Of a stretch of 40,000 bases of DNA, positions 5,697-34,012 are shown in pieces. The position numbers were made by a program, and so were the translations under genes. This DNA is from Cellvibrionaceae bacterium (GTDB taxonomy: Bacteria; Pseudomonadota; Gammaproteobacteria; Pseudomonadales; Cellvibrionaceae). How positions within the stretch are numbered: position 1 is the stretch's first letter; the number at the start of each line of letters is the position of its first letter. The stretch lies in contig OZ245996.1 of NCBI GenBank assembly GCA_965230205.1, forward strand, positions 2,575,978 to 2,615,977. The letters are read 5' to 3'. The notes beneath the pieces are model-generated. The model was not told the origin of the DNA. It saw only the letters and a program-made list of their open reading frames with translations, and did not search any database.

Positions 5697-6704
5697 ATGA
5701 ATTCGATTAGTTTTTTAAAACCATTAAAACATCTAGTTATAGTTACCTTTTCCCTAGGGTTGATTGCCTGTGGGTCACAAGCGACAAACGCTAGTGAGAG
5801 TGCCAAGCAAGCTAAAGCATCAGCGGCGGCTACAGGAGCCCCTATTGTGACCAAAATGAAGAATTATATTTTTGGTCATAGCTTAGTCAATCATACTCCC
5901 CCTAAGATCCCAACACCAAGTAATGAAACATCTGTTCCCCATTGGATGAAGGTATTAAGTAAGGCTTCTGGGTTTGGCTATACCGTTGATGGCCAGTATG
6001 GCTTCTTGCAAACTCACACAAATCTCCCTCCGACCCCACAATGGGGCTTTGACCTTCCAAAAAGTGGTTGGAGAGGGTCGTTTGCATCAAGTAATTTCAC
6101 CACTATTTTGTTAACGCCTGCGAATTTCATTCAATATCAGCCCGCTGATGTACCTTATGATGGGGATAATCCGAAGAGAACAACTCCAATAGAAGCAACA
6201 TTGACAGTTGTTGACTGGGTGACTAAGAAAGAACCTAACGCTATTATTTATCTTTATGAAAGTTGGCCCGATATGGCCTCATACATCCCTAACTTCCCGC
6301 CATCTGATCAGGATTTTGCGAAATATAATAACTATACCAATAATGAATTTCATCAATGGTGGATCAATTATCACGACGCAATTTTATCGGCAAGACCAAA
6401 TGCCAAGATTAAAATGCTGCCTATAGGACCTATTATTAGTAAGTTATTATTAGAGACTGATTTAGGTCAAATCCCCGTGACAGAGCTTTATGAAGATGCT
6501 GCTCCTCATGGCAGACCTACAATCTATTTTCTTGCGAGCTTGGTTACTTTTATGGGTACCTATGGCGTTCAGCCTGAATTAGATTTCAAAGTACCAAAGA
6601 TTATTCACCCTCTTGTTAAGAAAAATTATGAGAGCACAGTGAATTTTATTTGGAAAGAGTTGCAAGGTTTTAACGATAGCCAAGGCAATAGTCGGATTTG
6701 GTAG
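5697..6704 (+). CDS. Hypothetical lipoprotein (possible SGNH-like hydrolase fold; weak)
   Basis: 335 aa with a lipobox (LGLIAC). IFGHSL near the N-terminus and DAAPHG near the C-terminus loosely resemble SGNH blocks I and V. I recognise no firm family. Confidence 0.5.
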   Translation: MNSISFLKPLKHLVIVTFSLGLIACGSQATNASESAKQAKASAAATGAPIVTKMKNYIFGHSLVNHTPPKIPTPSNETSVPHWMKVLSKASGFGYTVDGQYGFLQTHTNLPPTPQWGFDLPKSGWRGSFASSNFTTILLTPANFIQYQPADVPYDGDNPKRTTPIEATLTVVDWVTKKEPNAIIYLYESWPDMASYIPNFPPSDQDFAKYNNYTNNEFHQWWINYHDAILSARPNAKIKMLPIGPIISKLLLETDLGQIPVTELYEDAAPHGRPTIYFLASLVTFMGTYGVQPELDFKVPKIIHPLVKKNYESTVNFIWKELQGFNDSQGNSRIW

Positions 6705-9395: not shown

Positions 9396-9459
9396 TAGGT
9401 TGAAGCCGTTGATTGAGTATGCAGTGGTTTCCTCTACGTTGCTTTACTGATAAGCTACC

Positions 9460-9720
9460 GGGCTTATAGGTGCCCTCTATTTCAGTTTGTTGAATAAAGG
9501 GATAATCGGGAAGTATGGTGACCTGTTAACCTTAGACTTTATGTCAAAGCAAGTAGGATCAACAAGTAATTCCATCGCTGCCCCCGCATCGGTATTAAAG
9601 AGTAGTTTGTGTTAACCACTGGAACAGCGTCTATGATTAGTGTTCTGGGAAGGTACAATCGTGGGAAGGTTTAATCGAAGGTAACTTGCCTCCCTCTTTT
9701 AGCCCGAAGACCGGCCTATA
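9460..9720 (+). ncRNA. Cobalamin (AdoCbl) riboswitch 1
   Basis: The conserved blocks appear in order: GGTGCC (9469), AAAGGGATAATCGGGAAG..GGTGA, GCTGCCCCCGCATCGGTA, AACCACTGG, TGGGAAGG, and a B12-box-like AGCCCGAAGACCGGCC (9701-9716). It lies upstream of the cob operon. Confidence 0.8.
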
Positions 9721-9762
9721 TACTCTAAAAACATTTGTACGGTGGGTGCAGAGAGGAATCAC

Positions 9763-22114: not shown

Positions 22115-23074
22115 CTACAACAGGTCAACCGGACTGGTAGTCCCCGCTCTTGCCTGTCCAACCACATGTGTATAAATTTCAGTTGTTCTAATATCTGCAT
22201 GGCCTAATAATTCTTGGACTGTTCTAATGTCACTACCTGATTGCAGTAGCTGAGTAGCAAAGGAATGCCGAAAGGTATGAGCTGTGACCCGCTTCATTAG
22301 TTCACTAGCTTTGACCGCCTGTCTCAATTGTTTGGCAAATGCAGAATCATGAATATGATGTCGACAAATATAACCATCATAAGGATGCGTGCAACGCGTG
22401 GAAGACGGAAATAAATACTGCCACGAAAAATCTTTTACTATTCGTCCATATTTACGTTGCAACGAAGGTGCAACGGATGTCATACCATAACCGTCATCCA
22501 AATCCTGTTGATGAACCTTTTTTGAACACTCGATTTGTTCGTGCAATGCTGGTACTAAGGATTCAGGCAACATCGTGTAACGATCTTTACCACCTTTACC
22601 GCGAAATACCAAAATAGACTGATTATGGAAATCAATATCTTTAATTCTCAGCGCAAGTACTTCCTTAATTCTGAAACCGCATCCATAAAGCATGGATGTA
22701 ATAAGGCGATATTTACCTCGCATGTGGCTCAAAATAGCAGCGACCTCAGCGGGTGAAAGTACCGTTGGTAAATTCCGTGGTCGTTTAGCAAAGCCATATT
22801 GCAAGCCTTCGATTGATCTATGCAATATATGGCGGTACATAAAAATAATGGCGCACAGTGCTTGGTTTTGAGTCGCAGCACTGACACCTCTATTAACCGC
22901 CATATGATTTAAAAACCGCTCAATCTCCTGGTTACCCATATCTGTTGGATGCCTTTTGTCATTAAATAAAATGAAGTGTCTTATCCAGTAAAGATAGGTT
23001 TTCTCAGTGCGTAGGCTGTAATGGCGTGTGCGTAACTCCGTTCTCACACTTTCCATGAAAGGGGATCGTGGCAT
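22115..23074 (-). CDS. intI: Integron integrase IntI
   Basis: 319 aa. It has the tyrosine-recombinase boxes (GFRIKEVLALRIKDID; HTFRHSFATQLL; LLGHADIRTTEIYTHV). It also has the IntI-specific insertion (APSLQRKYGRIVKDFSWQYLFPSS...ICRHHIHDSAF). Confidence 0.95.
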   Translation of the reverse strand: MPRSPFMESVRTELRTRHYSLRTEKTYLYWIRHFILFNDKRHPTDMGNQEIERFLNHMAVNRGVSAATQNQALCAIIFMYRHILHRSIEGLQYGFAKRPRNLPTVLSPAEVAAILSHMRGKYRLITSMLYGCGFRIKEVLALRIKDIDFHNQSILVFRGKGGKDRYTMLPESLVPALHEQIECSKKVHQQDLDDGYGMTSVAPSLQRKYGRIVKDFSWQYLFPSSTRCTHPYDGYICRHHIHDSAFAKQLRQAVKASELMKRVTAHTFRHSFATQLLQSGSDIRTVQELLGHADIRTTEIYTHVVGQARAGTTSPVDLL

Positions 23075-23339: not shown

Positions 23340-23413
23340 CGCTTCAGATTAACGCGGAATTTGGTTGTGGGTAAGTGGGATAAACACGAATTCCGACTAA
23401 TATACTGTTAGGC
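23340..23413 (+). other. attI region; proposed crossover core GTTAGGC at 23407-23413
   Basis: GTTAGGC fits GTTRRRY and lies 4 nt before the first cassette ATG, consistent with the short core-to-ATG spacing of the other cassettes. An upstream inverted repeat CGGAATT...AATTCCG is present. The extent is approximate. Confidence 0.4.
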
Positions 23414-23416
23414 TCT

Positions 23417-23857
23417 ATGGATACCGAAGAATACATAACTAAACTATTTGTCGATGCAGGGTGGCATGAAGGCCGCCAAGTCGAGGGCATAAATCAGGCT
23501 TCAAACTCATCCAGTACTGCCCACAAAAATGCAGCGGCCGTGCTGGCCGAATTTGGTGGTCTCGATGTGGGGGAAGTCGGCCCTGGAAGAGAGCTTTCCG
23601 CAAGTGACATATCGTTTAGAACTCAGGCGTTTGATTTTGGAAATGAGTTCCACAACTATTGGCAAAGTCTAGAGGTGTCTTTGTTTGCTTTTGCTTCAGC
23701 ACATCACGACCATATGTTGCTACTAGTTGACGACGAAAATAGCTTTTACATATTTACTGATCCAGACGAGCAGCTGTATAAAGTAGGCAGCTTCGAAGAA
23801 ACAATGAAAAGGGTGTTGTTGGGTATCAATTATGGTGCAGCGCTTGAAAAAGCCTAA
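23417..23857 (+). CDS. Cassette 1: SUKH-3-like (SMI1/KNR4 superfamily) immunity protein
   Basis: 146 aa. AGWHEGRQV, LAEFGGL, HHDHMLLLVDDENSFY and LYKVGSFEETMKRVLLG follow the SUKH-3 pattern as I recall it. Confidence 0.55.
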   Translation: MDTEEYITKLFVDAGWHEGRQVEGINQASNSSSTAHKNAAAVLAEFGGLDVGEVGPGRELSASDISFRTQAFDFGNEFHNYWQSLEVSLFAFASAHHDHMLLLVDDENSFYIFTDPDEQLYKVGSFEETMKRVLLGINYGAALEKA

Positions 23858-23935
23858 CAAGTGCATGTTGTTCGCCCACTTCGTGGGCTGGGACCTCCGC
23901 ACTGCGTGCTCCGTCCCCAAATGCAGGCGTTAAGT
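23852..23935 (+). repeat. attC 1 (84 bp)
   Basis: R'' GCCTAAC ... R' GTTAAGT, with inner complementarity (AAGTGCAT / ATGCAGGC). Confidence 0.7.
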
Positions 23936-23948
23936 TTCCAAGGAAGTC

Positions 23949-24299
23949 ATGAGTCAGAAAGTTGAAATTATAGAGCTTGGTTTTTCGGTTGCAGACGCCG
24001 AAGATATCACTTTCAAATATGACGGTGCTGACCTCGTATTGGAGTTCAACGATTGGCAGGAAAACCACATCACTATTAAGTGTGAAAATACTCTAGGTTT
24101 TAAATTTCAAAATGCAGAGTACGAGCTTTCTGAATCAGAGCGCTTTGACTCTTGTCATATCGTACATGACTCCGAGTGGGTAAAAGAGCACCTTAAGCAA
24201 GGAGAGGCTTGGGAAGGTGAAAATTGGCTCCATTATAAATTAAACTTTAATGCGGCTGGTGTCGTCGAGGTTCTATGTTCCGAGCTAGCCAAAACTTAA
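23949..24299 (+). CDS. Cassette 2: hypothetical protein (possibly immunity-like)
   Basis: 116-aa ORF filling the cassette. I recognise no family. Confidence 0.5.
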   Translation: MSQKVEIIELGFSVADAEDITFKYDGADLVLEFNDWQENHITIKCENTLGFKFQNAEYELSESERFDSCHIVHDSEWVKEHLKQGEAWEGENWLHYKLNFNAAGVVEVLCSELAKT

Positions 24300-24354
24300 C
24301 AAAGGTAGGCAGCAGGACCTCGCTGACGCTCGGCCTCTGCTACCGGCGTTAAGT
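24294..24354 (+). repeat. attC 2 (61 bp)
   Basis: R'' ACTTAAC ... R' GTTAAGT. GGTAGGCAGCAGG pairs with CCTCTGCTACC, leaving extrahelical bases. Confidence 0.75.
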
Positions 24355-24369
24355 TTACTAAGAGAAAAT

Positions 24370-24660
24370 ATGCCAATTAATCTAATTGACTATACAAATT
24401 CTGAGGAAGGCCAAAAAGGTAAATCTTTAGGTGGCATTTGCAAAGGTGAATGGGAAATGCCGAAGCAGGTAGAAGCGTTAGAGGTTTGGCTGAAGGAAAA
24501 AGGACAGAAGTTACCACCAGGAGACTATTTAGCTGATATAGGTTTTAGCCCACGAAAAGGTGCTCTAGGTGGTGGAGCTGTTCTTACACCAGAAGCCATG
24601 GCAATTATGTCCTCAATCGGCATGACCCTTTTTCTTTCTGAGTACCCAAATGATGATTAG
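24370..24660 (+). CDS. Cassette 3: hypothetical protein (weak DUF4279-like resemblance)
   Basis: 96-aa ORF. The C-terminal ...LTPEAMAIMSSIGMTLFLSEY loosely resembles DUF4279 ends. Confidence 0.45.
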   Translation: MPINLIDYTNSEEGQKGKSLGGICKGEWEMPKQVEALEVWLKEKGQKLPPGDYLADIGFSPRKGALGGGAVLTPEAMAIMSSIGMTLFLSEYPNDD

Positions 24661-24666
24661 TATCAA

Positions 24667-24741
24667 ACTTAACAAGCTTAGGTTGCGGAAAATTTACTGC
24701 GCCTTCGGCTCCGTAATTTTCCGCAACTAAAGGCGTTATAA
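24667..24741 (+). repeat. attC 3 (75 bp)
   Basis: R'' ACTTAAC ... R' GTTATAA. There is a strong stem, GGTTGCGGAAAATT / AATTTTCCGCAAC. Confidence 0.75.
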
Positions 24742-24748
24742 GTAAATC

Positions 24749-25078
24749 ATGTTCGAAAAAATCGTAAGCATTTTTAAAAACAAGAAACCGGAATGGTACG
24801 AACCAGAAGATCCGACTCCACGCGAACAATGTCCGTGTTGTGACTATATTTCTCTAGCAGAGCGTGGTAATTATTTAATATGCCCAATCTGCTTTTGGGA
24901 AGATGACGGCCAAGATGTAGATGAACTTGATTTAGGGTCTGGCCCTAATCACGGGATCACTCTTAGAGAAGGCAGGCACAATTTTAAAGAATTCGGTTCA
25001 TGTGAATTAGCTATGAAAAAACATGTGATCTCAGAAAGCGAGCGTAAGAAGTATGAACATAAACCGAGAAACTTATAA
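24749..25078 (+). CDS. Cassette 4: cysteine-rich CPCC-domain protein
   Basis: CPCCDYISLAERGNYLICPICFWEDDGQD...GPNHGITLREGRHNF matches the CPCC domain pattern. Confidence 0.65.
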   Translation: MFEKIVSIFKNKKPEWYEPEDPTPREQCPCCDYISLAERGNYLICPICFWEDDGQDVDELDLGSGPNHGITLREGRHNFKEFGSCELAMKKHVISESERKKYEHKPRNL

Positions 25079-25153
25079 CAAGGCACGCCAGTTGAAAAAT
25101 ATTACGTTTCGCTTCGCTGCACTACATATTTTCAACTGCGCTTGGCGTTATAC
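25073..25153 (+). repeat. attC 4 (81 bp)
   Basis: R'' TTATAAC ... R' GTTATAC. The stem is CAGTTGAAAAATAT / ATATTTTCAACTG. Confidence 0.7.
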
Positions 25154-25206
25154 CTCAAAACCCTTCAACAATTCCTTCTAAATTAAATCCAAATTAATTT
25201 CAAAAC

Positions 25207-25222
25207 CTGTTGATTCTTACAG
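25207..25222. promoter_or_regulatory. LexA-like box overlapping a candidate promoter of the SymE-like gene
   Basis: CTGTTGATTCTTACAG fits CTGT-N8-ACAG. It overlaps TTGATT (25210-25215), a 17-nt spacer and CGTAAT (25233-25238). Confidence 0.45.
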
Positions 25223-25364
25223 TATTTTAGTGCGTAATAGGTGGGCAGTTTTCACGCAAAGAAAGGTATTTTTATCGTAAAATTTTTACTTAAATAATCG
25301 CTACTCCTAGGTGCTACCAACACCTAGAAGCAGCTAACCACAACAGATATCGAGAGTATCCATC

Positions 25365-25631
25365 ATGGCTAAACGTACTATACAGCTAGAGCCTCGCTCG
25401 GCCCAAGAAAAATCTTCATCCTTCCGTAAACTCAAAGTCCGCAAAGGCTATTATCACTATCAACACGGTGATTTTCAGCCCCGTCAAAACCACCGTTCTT
25501 GCCAGCCTGTACCGTGGGTGCAAATAAAAGGTTATTGGCTCAATCAAGCAGGCTTTACTATTGGCACACAATTAAACGTGCAGGTGCAAAATGGTTGTAT
25601 TACTATCAAACCCCAATCTTCCCCCAGTTAA
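25365..25631 (+). CDS. symE: Cassette 5: SymE-like type I toxin (AbrB/SpoVT-fold)
   Basis: 88 aa. The C-terminal PWVQIKGYWLNQAGFTIGTQLNVQVQNGCITIKP is the SymE-family swapped-hairpin motif. The gene has its own roughly 210-nt upstream region within the cassette. Confidence 0.65.
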   Translation: MAKRTIQLEPRSAQEKSSSFRKLKVRKGYYHYQHGDFQPRQNHRSCQPVPWVQIKGYWLNQAGFTIGTQLNVQVQNGCITIKPQSSPS

Positions 25632-25677
25632 GTATCTGGGGTATATTCAGTCTATAAGCCAGCTCATACTTGGGCTG

Positions 25678-25781
25678 GTATAACAAAGCAAAGCACTCGG
25701 ATTTGGTAAAGCAGTCACTTTTTTTGCAAAAAGCGCAAAAAAACCGCCAACTTCACCAAGCCCGTGTTTGAAGCGTTAAAA
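25678..25781 (+). repeat. attC 5 (104 bp)
   Basis: R'' GTATAAC ... R' GTTAAAA. Its 3' half is nearly identical to that of attC 6. Confidence 0.7.
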
Positions 25782-25789
25782 GGCAAAAG

Positions 25790-26205: not shown

Positions 26206-26311
26206 TTTTAACAAGTCAAAGCACAGCGGACTTGGTAAAGCTGTCACCCTTTTTGCAAAAAAGCGCAAAAAGGCCGCCAACTTCACCAAGCCCGTGTTTG
26301 AAGCGTTATGA
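26206..26311 (+). repeat. attC 6 (106 bp)
   Basis: R'' TTTTAAC ... R' GTTATGA. It shares CCGCCAACTTCACCAAGCCCGTGTTTGAAGCGTTA with attC 5. Confidence 0.7.
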
Positions 26312-26608
26312 GTCACCGAAATTAGAGGTAACGTCCATACTTTTGTGAAGGATACGTATTATTTTAATTTTTTTGGGGGAAGTAACTTTATAAAAAATTA
26401 TATGGCTACCTTGTGGAAATTTTTGATAACCAGTCTTTATATGCTCACAAGCTTTGCCAATCGAGGGAGTTTCTGCAAGCATATGAAACGAATCATCAAA
26501 TTGCTTAATGTAAGCGTTTCGTTGTGTAAGCCCCCAACGTTTTTCAGTAAATCTTGCTATAGCTTTCAAGTCAGATTTAGCTCGTTGGGTTAATGTAAAT
26601 GAGTTCAT
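26306..26608 (-). CDS. parE: Cassette 7: ParE/RelE-family type II toxin
   Basis: 100 aa with an N-terminal TLTQRAKSDLKAIARFTEKRWG and a C-terminal IIFYKV...IKIIRILHKSMD. It has a 4-nt overlap with the upstream antitoxin gene. Confidence 0.8.
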   Translation of the reverse strand: MNSFTLTQRAKSDLKAIARFTEKRWGLTQRNAYIKQFDDSFHMLAETPSIGKACEHIKTGYQKFPQGSHIIFYKVTSPKKIKIIRILHKSMDVTSNFGDS

Positions 26609-26844
26609 TTGCCTTCGTTATCTAATTCCGTAATAAACTCATCATAGCTGTACTTAGCTGTTCCACTTTCCTCACCGTCAGTAAGCATTTGCCGCAATGC
26701 TGCAAGTTTGTGCTCCGTGTCTTCAAGTGCTCTCAAACCTGCACGTATTACCTCGCTTGCAGAGCCATAGCGGCCACTTTCAATCTGGTGTGCAATAAAC
26801 CCATCAAAGTGCTCGCCCAGTGTAATACTAGTGTTTTTAGCCAT
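26605..26844 (-). CDS. parD: Cassette 7: ParD-family (RHH) type II antitoxin
   Basis: 79 aa. NTSITLGEHFDGFIAHQIESGRYGSASEVIRAGLRALE is a typical ParD/CC2985 family sequence. Confidence 0.8.
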   Translation of the reverse strand: MAKNTSITLGEHFDGFIAHQIESGRYGSASEVIRAGLRALEDTEHKLAALRQMLTDGEESGTAKYSYDEFITELDNEGK

Positions 26845-26856
26845 ATTTCACCTCGT

Positions 26857-26887
26857 TTATACCAATATATACCCAATTATGGTATAA
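26857..26887. promoter_or_regulatory. Inverted repeat upstream of parD (candidate ParD/ParDE operator)
   Basis: TTATACCA-N15-TGGTATAA is a perfect 8-bp inverted repeat lying 13-43 nt upstream of the parD ATG. Confidence 0.45.
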
Positions 26888-26889
26888 AA

Positions 26890-26957
26890 CTCATAGCAAG
26901 GCAATCCAGTAGACGCACTACGTGTTGCTCCGTTTGTTACTAATTGAGGCGTTAGAG
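26890..26957 (+). repeat. attC 7 (about 68 bp; degenerate R'')
   Basis: R' is GTTAGAG preceded by the conserved GAGGCGTTA. The left end reads CTCATAGCAAGG instead of the usual TAACAAGG. Confidence 0.45.
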
Positions 26958-26992
26958 CTACAAACTCATCAATCAAAATAAGGAAATCAAAG

Positions 26993-27412
26993 ATGCATAC
27001 CCCAATCAAGTTTTATGTAAAATTACCCGCCGACCTCTTTCGCGGGGGCACACCAACTAAACATAAATTCGACTATTTAAGGACTATGCCACCAAGGAGA
27101 GAAGATCAAACGTATGATGTTAAAATCAATTCAGCTAGCGGGTTAATTGACCATACTACGGGAGGTTTAAGCCTTTTTAATAATCCTAATTATGGATTTG
27201 GTCAGGACTGGTGGGTGATCCCCGTAGGCACAAAACTCCCACCAGAATTTACTTTATCCAAAGACTTAACAGATGGTAAGTTTAGAGGGCATTACACAAT
27301 CAGGGCTCTTTTCGATATGCATGAATCAACATGGAAGAGAAAGTTGTCAGATTGGGCTGACAGGCATGCAATCCACATTAAACAATATAAAAAGGTAAAT
27401 AATAATGTTTAG
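26993..27412 (+). CDS. Cassette 8: Tse2-like toxin-domain protein
   Basis: 139 aa. TTGGLSLF...WWVIPVGTKLPPEF...GHYTIRALFDM parallels the Pseudomonas aeruginosa Tse2 core (GGTSVF...IPDGTDIPPDL...HYTIMP) as I recall it. There is no signal peptide and no trafficking domain. Confidence 0.5.
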   Translation: MHTPIKFYVKLPADLFRGGTPTKHKFDYLRTMPPRREDQTYDVKINSASGLIDHTTGGLSLFNNPNYGFGQDWWVIPVGTKLPPEFTLSKDLTDGKFRGHYTIRALFDMHESTWKRKLSDWADRHAIHIKQYKKVNNNV

Positions 27413-27581
27413 CGTTATGGAGTTAAGATTAATAAGAACATCTGTGAAAAATACAATGCAAGATTTAATTGAGCGCAAAGGTATTCTAGACCCAGAATCT
27501 GATGACTCTGTCGAAATAACAAACGACCTTATGATATATCAAAATATCCTTGAAAAAATAAATGACCGAGAAGATGTATAG
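27405..27581 (+). CDS. Cassette 8: unlisted 58-aa acidic ORF, candidate cognate immunity/antitoxin
   Basis: MFSVMELRLIRTSVKNTMQDLIERKGILDPESDDSVEITNDLMIYQNILEKINDREDV has 13 D/E versus 7 K/R. Its start overlaps the toxin stop (ATGTTTAG, 8-nt overlap). It is below the ORF-track length cutoff. Confidence 0.45.
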   Translation: MFSVMELRLIRTSVKNTMQDLIERKGILDPESDDSVEITNDLMIYQNILEKINDREDV

Positions 27582-27650
27582 CTCCAACAAACAACACCAG
27601 CGGAACAATTTACTCTTCGCCTCAATTGCCCCCTGTGTTGGGTGTTATGC
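27582..27650 (+). repeat. attC 8 (69 bp)
   Basis: R'' CTCCAAC ... R' GTTATGC. There is partial inner pairing (CAACACCAGCGG..CAATT / AATTGCCCCCTGTGTTG). Confidence 0.6.
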
Positions 27651-33406: not shown

Positions 33407-33584
33407 GGTTCCTGATGATTACCTCCATTGTTAATAGAATGCATTGAGTTTGAAACGAGGCGATAGTGTTTTGTTGGATGAGGCTTGTCAATCAAAAGTA
33501 TCACAAATTCCTTAAATAAAATCTGGTCAGGATAATAGTGTTTTTCTTTAGCTATAAATGTCTTTATACTGCTGTAGCTCGATT

Positions 33585-33790
33585 TTAGGTTCCAGAGTGG
33601 TAGTGTCTAGCTTAGCTGCTATCAGTCGATGGATTAATAGGGAATGCCTGTAACGTCGTAAGGCGTTAATACCGCAGCTGTCCCCGCAACTGTATGCAAC
33701 GAGTTGTTACCAATAACCACTGATGCAATTAGTAAAAGCATTGGGAAGGTGGTAATGATGATGACCTGTGAGCCAGTAGACCTGCCTTAA
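33585..33790 (+). ncRNA. Cobalamin (AdoCbl) riboswitch 2
   Basis: AATAGGGAATGCCTGTAA, GCAGCTGTCCCCGCAACTGTA, AACCACTG, TTGGGAAGGTGG and B12 box GAGCCAGTAGACCTGCC. It lies upstream of cobW-cobN-cobQ. Confidence 0.85.
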
Positions 33791-34012
33791 TCGATAAACC
33801 TGATGGTCGGGGAGTGCAATCAGGGTAGGAAATTATTGTTTTCCTCCTTTTATCACTTCTGTGCTTATATGTACTGTTTTTGCCTAGGCAGGATTTGTCG
33901 CTCCTATGCAGAATTATAGTTCGATACTATTCCCGACTTTGATTATTGACGCTTACTATTGCAGCTCGTATTTTTTGAGCTAATAGTATTCTTTCAGTTG
34001 TTCGGAGCTCTT

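Follow-up and report, generated by a model that had tools for sequence, protein, structure and literature searches.

A compact and well-conserved sister clade of Tse2, in which toxins of 138–143 aa are accompanied by a 58-aa partner family of their own, moves as an integron cassette. The pair described here was found in a 40,000-nucleotide stretch of a Cellvibrionaceae genome (hereafter the window, whose numbering is used for all coordinates), where the toxin gene occupies 26993–27412 and the partner gene 27405–27581. The pair coincides exactly with a single cassette of a chromosomal integron; this cassette is mobile. We consider it very probable that they encode a toxin and its cognate neutralizer.

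Tse2 was among the earliest antibacterial T6SS effectors to be described, in 2010. In Pseudomonas aeruginosa, it is a stand-alone protein of 158 aa that is encoded with tsi2 at the orphan locus PA2702/PA2703 and exported by binding to Hcp1. Its toxicity has been described only as NAD-dependent and possibly ADP-ribosyltransferase-like, and reviews differ in how strongly they word this description. An earlier sequence-only reading of the same DNA had put the pair forward as its best candidate for an undescribed system. This was half right: the partner family carries no annotation, but the toxin family is represented in Pfam, and NCBI and UniProt entries for its homologs already bear the name "Tse2 ADP-ribosyltransferase toxin domain-containing protein". 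Since Pfam and existing annotation recognize the toxin family, the pair extends known biology rather than representing a new kind of system. In the literature searched, integron cassettes are not reported to contain Tse2-like genes, and the 58-aa partner family is not described.

Assignment of the toxin to the Tse2 family

The toxin gene (26993–27412, forward strand) encodes a protein of 139 aa with a pI of 9.66, which is a distant relative of Tse2, the growth-arrest toxin of Pseudomonas, and has the ADP-ribosyltransferase-like fold of Tse2. The Pfam family PF18648 (ADPRTs_Tse2) matched this protein with 40.7 bits against a gathering cut-off of 26.6 (E = 4.5e-10), the match extending over toxin residues 14–130 and over positions 2–133 of the 137 in the model. 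When the 139-aa sequence was searched with phmmer, the best solved relative was P. aeruginosa Tse2 (5AKO, chain C; E = 0.002), and a profile built from 31 homologs retrieved the same chain from the PDB with E = 9.8e-5. An AlphaFold model built on the 31-homolog alignment reached a pLDDT of 85.2 and a pTM of 0.80. Searched against the PDB with Foldseek, the model matched 5AKO_C (E = 4.4e-4, probability 1.00, TM 0.61/0.56), which was its sole PDB match at E ≤ 0.001. Family and fold were thus recovered by HMM-based and structure-based searches alike, at levels far from those of a chance resemblance, and the likeness to Tse2 that the earlier reading had drawn was correct. The three motifs on which that likeness was based, TGGLSLF, WVIPVGTKLPPEF and GHYTIRALFDM, are present in the toxin in the order given.

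Homologs of the toxin form 70 protein clusters with 53–99% identity. A search of 1.84 billion representative proteins returned 88 relatives at E ≤ 0.001, nearly all of which are stand-alone proteins of 110–200 aa; the one long match was to a repeat protein and is probably spurious. In a superfamily alignment of 31 diverse members, among them the representative of the Tse2 cluster, four residues (R17, G58, S60, and H100) are invariant, and all are kept in the window toxin. The near-invariant positions L15, G19, R30, G57, F62, W73, P83, and Y101 are likewise all retained, and the core motifs LxR, GGxSxF, and HYT are common to the window toxin and Pseudomonas-type Tse2.

Identification of an overlapping partner gene

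The second gene (27405–27581, forward strand) encodes a protein of 58 aa with a pI of 4.32 and is a candidate immunity or antitoxin gene. The sequence-only reading had pointed to this ORF, which was missing from the program-made ORF list, and had placed its start 8 nt before the toxin stop codon. This placement was accurate; the ORF is genuine, not a chance reading frame, and is an obligate companion of the toxin on its 3' side. Its ATG lies within ATGTTTAG, 8 nt ahead of the toxin stop, such that the two genes overlap by 8 nt. Homologs of the small protein form 61 protein clusters with 66–98% identity, many of them from contigs that also hold toxin homologs. Pairing was surveyed in 17 genome loci, 17 metagenome loci, and several further contigs, and the small ORF was found directly 3' of the toxin gene in all of the approximately 35 loci whose toxin is intact and whose sequence extends far enough, as the earlier reading had expected of a true partner. 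The partner in Vibrio cincinnatiensis was too diverged for tblastn and was visible by eye. The same arrangement, a toxin followed by an acidic ORF of 55–78 aa, characterizes the Tse2 superfamily as a whole, and the opposite charges of the two products (computed pI 9.66 and 4.32) recur in the Pseudomonas-type pair (9.04 and 4.11).

The junction between the two genes was tabulated across 24 loci. An overlap of 8 nt was observed in 15 of these, an overlap of 1 nt in five, and a gap of 1–9 nt in the remaining four. In the window, a Shine-Dalgarno-like AAGG (27392–27395, forward strand) is located within the 3' end of the toxin gene, about 10 nt 5' of the small-ORF ATG, and an AGG or AAAGG at about this distance is kept in all 24 loci. 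The tight junction and the conserved AGG-type motif suggest that translation of the two genes is coupled.

Both genes are under strong purifying selection. Over the 24 loci, pN/pS was 0.21/0.80 for the toxin gene and 0.23/0.83 for the small ORF, with saturated synonymous sites and low non-synonymous divergence in the two genes alike. Pairwise divergences of the toxin and the small ORF were correlated across these loci (r = 0.82), a value that derives partly from shared ancestry and hence is evidence for co-inheritance rather than for physical contact.

The decay of the pair was also one-sided. An intact small ORF was found beside a disrupted toxin gene at seven loci (L011, L012, L013, L016, L045, L048, and L050), and the converse, a broken small ORF beside an intact toxin, was absent from the loci surveyed. 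The disruptions comprise frameshifts or premature stops (L011 from Microbulbifer thermotolerans, L013 from Sessilibacter corallicola, L045, and L048), a missing N-terminus (L012), and internal deletions (L016, and L050 from Thalassomonas actiniarum). This is the pattern expected of a toxin that is lethal without its partner. Given p ~0.09 for a 7:0 outcome under neutral disruption in proportion to gene length, the signal is suggestive rather than decisive.

Predicted structure of the partner and comparison with Tsi2

AlphaFold predicts the 58-aa protein to be an antiparallel two-helix hairpin (helices 4–26 and 33–53; pLDDT 95.9), with the conserved acidic residues D29, E31, D33, E37, and D41 in the loop and at the beginning of helix 2. 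The description of the product as acidic and helix-prone in the sequence-only reading was therefore apt, as its 13 D/E against 7 K/R, its pI, and the modeled helices attest. In the crystal structure of Tsi2 (pI 4.1), helices 4–26 and 30–62 form an antiparallel coiled coil, and Tse2 is bound by a patch of acidic residues on helix 2 (E38, D45) (PMC3325213). As modeled, the 58-aa protein thus resembles Tsi2 in architecture, charge, and gene position, a resemblance that is not evidence for homology.

Membership of the 58-aa protein in the Tsi2 family was considered and rejected, as Pfam, PDB profile, Foldseek, and hhalign comparisons were all non-significant. No Pfam family, the Tsi2 family PF21643 (T6SS_Tsi2-like) included, matched the protein at E ≤ 10, whereas PF21643 scores 99 bits on a Pseudomonas-type partner. 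Tsi2 did not appear in a PDB profile search with the 58-aa family or among the top 50 Foldseek matches of the model, which were non-specific helical hairpins, and an hhalign comparison of the family with a Tsi2 alignment gave a probability of 0.9% and E = 0.059. Nor was there an NCBIfam, PADLOC, or significant PHROG match for the protein. The sequence-only reading had ascribed Tsi2-type immunity properties to the small protein while finding its sequence unrelated to any recognized family; the second statement holds, and of the first, the hairpin form, acidity, and position stand and family membership does not. As sequence homology to Tsi2 is undetectable, the 58-aa proteins constitute a separate, unannotated family.

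This family extends to the partners of toxins that are only 28–47% identical (hhalign probability 79–99%), which indicates that it is sizeable and provides partners for much of the Tse2 superfamily. A bridge from the family to Tsi2 through intermediate toxins was also sought and not obtained: the partners of toxins of 157–158 aa (L026 and L027) match neither family. No DNA-binding domain was detected in the 58-aa protein with Pfam or NCBIfam, and the predicted hairpin occupies the protein, leaving no room for one.

Integron context and mobility of the cassette

The integron is defined by an integrase gene, intI (22115–23074, reverse strand), which scored 400 bits against TIGR02249 (cut-off 265) and contains the Pfam domains Phage_integrase and Phage_int_SAM_4. 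The array begins at the attI recombination point GTTAGGC (23407–23413, forward strand), as read from the sequence, with the first cassette ORF starting at 23417, and continues to approximately 29800. It holds about 11 cassettes, of which the Tse2-like pair is approximately the eighth. Boundaries of the G[CT]GTTA type were located at about 23929, 24348, 24735, 25146, 25775, 26305, 26951, and 27644. Core sites in the array deviate from the RYYYAAC/GTTRRRY consensus (GTTAGAG, GTTATAA), and strict patterns miss most of them; cassette boundaries were accordingly set by sequence reading, by the break in homology to locus L001, and by a loosened core-site pattern.

The cassette spans about 693 bp (26952–27644, forward strand). 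Its 5' boundary is the R' core site GTTAGAG of the preceding attC (26951–26957, forward strand), which coincides with the start of homology to L001. Only 41 nt of leader (26952–26992) separate this boundary from the toxin ATG, and they include a Shine-Dalgarno-like AAGGAA (26980–26985, forward strand), read from the sequence, 7 nt 5' of the ATG. No sigma-70-like site was found on the forward strand upstream of the toxin ATG in the cassette. The attC of the cassette (27582–27650, forward strand) consists of R'' CTCCAAC (27582–27588), which abuts the stop codon of the small gene, and R' GTTATGC (27644–27650). Its bottom strand folds into a hairpin of R-box, spacer, and L-box with bulges (−10.7 kcal/mol, z = −1.5). 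5' of 26951, the region expected to contain the attC belonging to the parDE cassette folds no better than shuffled sequence. The adjoining upstream cassette is this parDE cassette, which is inverted, whereas the Tse2-like cassette is in the forward orientation. Additionally, the same array contains three cassettes encoding immunity-type proteins of polymorphic toxins (SUKH-3, NGO_1070-like, and CPCC).

Mobility is evident from a second array. Positions 26950–27647 of the window are 98.6% identical to positions 5958–6655 of L001, a locus in a related genome (CANKXO010000003.1), with the homology ending at both core sites; the 6-kb flanks on either side have nothing in common. L001 possesses the same 69-nt attC, with the canonical CTCTAAC. 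In at least 11 of 34 loci, the pair lies between boundaries of the attC type; among these are loci from Thalassomonas haliotis, Microbulbifer, Sessilibacter, and Vibrio cincinnatiensis, together with several on metagenome contigs. The mobile-cassette packaging suggested at the outset is thus borne out by the attC boundaries, the intI/attI array, and the copy of the cassette in a different array.

The pair is also found beyond integrons and across a wide taxonomic range. Copies with 76–78% identity occur in Desulfobacterota MAGs, and further copies occur in many orders of Gammaproteobacteria. Genomes with an intact pair include those of Thalassomonas haliotis (CP059693), Aliikangiella sp. (CP199292), Marinomonas spartinae, Litoribrevibacter albus, and Rheinheimera nanhaiensis. 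Elsewhere, the pair is located between housekeeping genes or beside ParE-like, HigB, or ParDE genes; in L007, for example, a ParE-like gene adjoins it. In Marinomonas spartinae and in metagenome contigs related to it, the pair immediately follows a phage pRha-type gene, and HigB, ParDE, and a gene faintly matching Shedu (SduA_C) lie close by. In one case, in Rheinheimera, it is oriented convergently with eCIS effector-like genes. From locus to locus, the sequences preceding the pair are unrelated, with homology starting only 10–25 nt 5' of the toxin ATG. None of the annotated neighborhoods contained T6SS genes (hcp, vgrG, PAAR, or tss) within 6–10 kb. Searches of the plasmid collection, of 50,697 phage records, and of IMG/VR found no copies of the pair, and PADLOC returned no match for it.

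Proposed role of the pair and alternative explanations

By analogy with Tse2, the toxin would arrest growth inside the cytoplasm in an NAD-dependent manner. The 58-aa hairpin would be translated from the same mRNA by coupling, through its ATG 8 nt before the toxin stop and the internal AGG, and it probably neutralizes the toxin by direct binding that occludes the active site, the mode in which Tsi2 acts on Tse2. Because such a toxin would act in the cytoplasm of its producer, a cell expressing the pair would depend on the small gene, and the pair would behave as a toxin–antitoxin or addiction module. The pair travels in a single promoterless integron cassette, with further copies outside integrons.

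Such a toxin and neutralizer may work without a dedicated export system, a proposition to which we give slightly less than an even chance and toward which we nonetheless lean slightly over export. Travel across phyla is hard to square with dependence on a cognate Hcp and favors independence from delivery. Two observations on the neighborhoods lie on the same side: within 6–10 kb they are devoid of annotated T6SS genes, and they often contain classical toxin–antitoxin genes (the parDE cassette here, the ParE-like gene in L007, and HigB/ParDE in Marinomonas). On the other side is the sole characterized relative, Tse2, a T6SS effector that is itself stand-alone and encoded at an orphan locus. As tse2 is also located away from its T6SS, the absence of T6SS genes from a neighborhood is not decisive. 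The sequence-only reading had called the toxin delivery-less on the grounds that PAAR, Rhs, and VgrG domains and T6SS neighbors are absent; this reasoning fails, because Tse2 fits the same description and is nonetheless exported by Hcp1.

In its traits, the pair is only partly that of a type II toxin–antitoxin system. Tight linkage of the genes for a toxin and a protein antitoxin was observed in 24 of 24 tabulated loci, whereas a DNA-binding, autoregulating antitoxin with a co-travelling operator was found neither in the 58-aa protein nor in the loci compared or the cassette leader. The order of the genes, with the toxin first, likewise speaks against a type II assignment, as does the lack of a co-travelling promoter. 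A silent promoterless cassette could not addict its host, which counts against an addiction role. The immunity-type cassettes in the array hint at a theme of bacterial competition, and the plasmid, phage, and IMG/VR collections are without copies; both observations weigh on the same side. The full proposal, a T6SS-independent toxin–antitoxin system of the Tse2 family with a new 58-aa antitoxin family, spread across phyla mainly as a promoterless integron cassette, is offered tentatively, as one that could be true but is less probable than delivery independence by itself.

A T6SS cargo effector with its immunity protein, as in Tse2–Tsi2, is a possible explanation of the same data, although we would not call it probable. 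The 16-kDa toxin would be loaded in the Hcp tube and injected into neighboring cells, the small protein would shield the producer and its kin, and the integron would supply and shuffle genes for weapons and immunity. Membership of the toxin in a family whose namesake is a stand-alone, Hcp1-exported protein from an orphan tse2-tsi2 bicistron agrees well with this explanation, as do the toxin-then-immunity order and abutting junction, which are those of the Pseudomonas-type loci L019 and L020. A small protein lacking a DNA-binding domain and a pair lacking a co-travelling operator would also be expected, and the seven loci with an intact immunity gene beside a dead toxin would be comparable to orphan immunity genes. 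Furthermore, three other cassettes of the array encode immunity-type proteins, and a Tse2-domain protein of Pseudoalteromonas has already been predicted, solely on the basis of its domain, to act as a T6SS effector (PMC11882849). However, no hcp, vgrG, PAAR, or tss gene is near the pair at any locus examined, and near-identical pairs occur across phyla and at unrelated insertion sites, whereas cargo fitted to a particular Hcp should not roam in this way. Addiction and effector roles need not exclude each other, since a cytoplasmic toxin makes the immunity gene indispensable in either case.

Abortive infection or phage exclusion, in which the small protein would restrain the toxin until phage infection frees it, is very unlikely. 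The Marinomonas spartinae locus and the related metagenome contigs, with a pRha-type gene directly before the pair and HigB, ParDE, and a faintly Shedu-like (SduA_C) gene in the vicinity, would suit such a role, but most loci are without a defense-island context and no sensing component is evident. The abortive-infection-like function suggested by the sequence-only reading also finds no counterpart in PADLOC, and the pair is missing from the 50,697 phage records, IMG/VR, and the plasmid collection. Least likely of all is that the 139-aa protein is a domesticated or inactive Tse2 fold with a chaperone or regulator, rather than an antidote, encoded beside it: identity to Tse2 is only 17–20%, and the literature reviewed establishes neither the catalytic residues nor the target of Tse2, but the superfamily-invariant R17, G58, S60, and H100 are retained under strong purifying selection, and one-sided decay together with a coupled, oppositely charged, obligate partner is what a toxic protein would need.

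Implications and relation to known systems

A toxin that is very probably accompanied by its own neutralizer provides a second, independent, and tractable system for studying the mechanism of Tse2 and its neutralization, and brings a further type of toxin and antidote into the repertoire recorded for chromosomal integrons. A question that arises is whether Tse2-family toxins serve mainly as secreted weapons or mainly as intracellular addiction modules. If the T6SS-independent reading is true, Tse2 would descend from, or belong to, a wider class of intracellular addiction toxins, and the minimal pair of 139 and 58 aa would be available for finding the biochemical target of Tse2.

Known integron toxin–antitoxin cassettes, such as parDE, higBA, and relBE of Vibrio superintegrons, have their own promoter and are often inverted. 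The pair described here shares with them the arrangement of a two-gene unit of toxin and neutralizer in one cassette of a large chromosomal array. It differs in having a forward-oriented cassette with a 41-nt leader and no recognizable promoter.

DarTG and ParST are toxin–antitoxin systems with ADP-ribosyltransferase-type toxins. DarG, a macrodomain enzyme, undoes the modification, and the antitoxin ParS binds DNA and has its gene upstream of the toxin gene. The likeness would lie in a two-gene module in which an ART-fold toxin in the cytoplasm of the producer is neutralized by a cognate protein. The window pair is not known to be related to these systems in sequence or family, and its partner is a predicted 58-aa hairpin encoded downstream.

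The closest known system is Tse2–Tsi2. The toxins of the two pairs belong to the same Pfam family (PF18648) and share a fold (5AKO), and in both pairs a small, basic, stand-alone toxin is followed by a small, acidic, two-helix partner in a bicistron away from a T6SS cluster. Unlike Tse2, which has 158 aa, the window toxin has 139 aa, is 17–20% identical to it, and possesses a conserved N-terminus of its own (MHTPIxFYV..DLFRGG..DYLRTMPPR). The partner, with 58 aa against the 77 aa of Tsi2, is without the C-terminal helix and loops of Tsi2, and the window pair, in contrast to Tse2–Tsi2, rides in an integron cassette.

Conservation and copies of the Tse2-like pair

The extreme N-terminus of the toxin (window 26993-27004) carries the residues MHTP, which are almost invariant among the homologs, with H2 present in 31/31 sequences. 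This near-invariance extends to toxin relatives of only 35-40% identity. Conservation of this degree at residues 2-4 is unusual, and these residues could matter for structure, catalysis, or recognition.

A Cellvibrionaceae MAG (OZ252214.1) has, besides its main copy, a distantly related second Tse2-like pair of 125 aa and 70 aa (L010, 4028-4628). This second pair is located 2 kb upstream of the main copy and is separated from it by IS-type genes; its toxin shares 29% identity with the window toxin. Two further traces in the same genome are L016, a copy with a deletion, and L015, a remnant of 28 codons. At another locus (L023, 1614-2449), two small acidic ORFs, 64 and 67 aa long, stand in tandem downstream of a distant toxin. 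Both are relatives of the 58-aa partner proteins (hhalign probabilities of 96% and 79%, respectively), and the arrangement looks like a duplicated immunity gene.

In Rheinheimera nanhaiensis (L002, 6713-10100), two genes with eCIS_core domains (PF13699), a marker of extracellular contractile injection system cargo, are convergent to the Tse2-like pair. As this neighborhood was found in one locus only, it may be coincidental.

Composition of the cassette array

Two attC sites of the array (window 25698-25785 and 26227-26315) are 88% identical to one another. In Thalassomonas haliotis, the attC found after the Tse2-like cassette (L018, 8593-8687) shares approximately 80% identity with both. From sequence resemblance, these two sites suggest that the host of the window is a relative of Thalassomonas. 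The attC of the window's own Tse2-like cassette is of a different type.

Directly upstream of the Tse2-like cassette, in reverse orientation, lies a parDE toxin-antitoxin cassette (window 26306-26844, minus strand; ParD, 119 bits; ParE, 71 bits), which has a promoter-like site of its own on the minus strand (26904-26876). The region in which its attC was expected (26872-26959) folded no better than shuffled sequence.

Nearer the integrase, cassettes encoding SUKH-3 (23417-23857), NGO_1070-like (23949-24299), and Cys_rich_CPCC (24749-25078) proteins, all of polymorphic-toxin immunity type, follow one another consecutively (n=3; 23417-25078) with no adjoining toxin. The window integron may be gathering orphan immunity genes. 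The integron region as a whole is flanked by two cobalamin riboswitches (9451-9733, 85 bits; 33570-33803, 84 bits), each of which lies upstream of an apparent cobalamin-related operon.

The array also includes a SymE-type toxin cassette (window 25153-25781; ORF 25365-25631; Pfam SymE_toxin, 63.7 bits), whose leader of approximately 210 nt is unusually long. Part of this leader (25295-25373) shares 85% identity with the opposite strand of Thalassomonas haliotis L018 at 9409-9486. A type I system's antisense RNA could lie within the leader.
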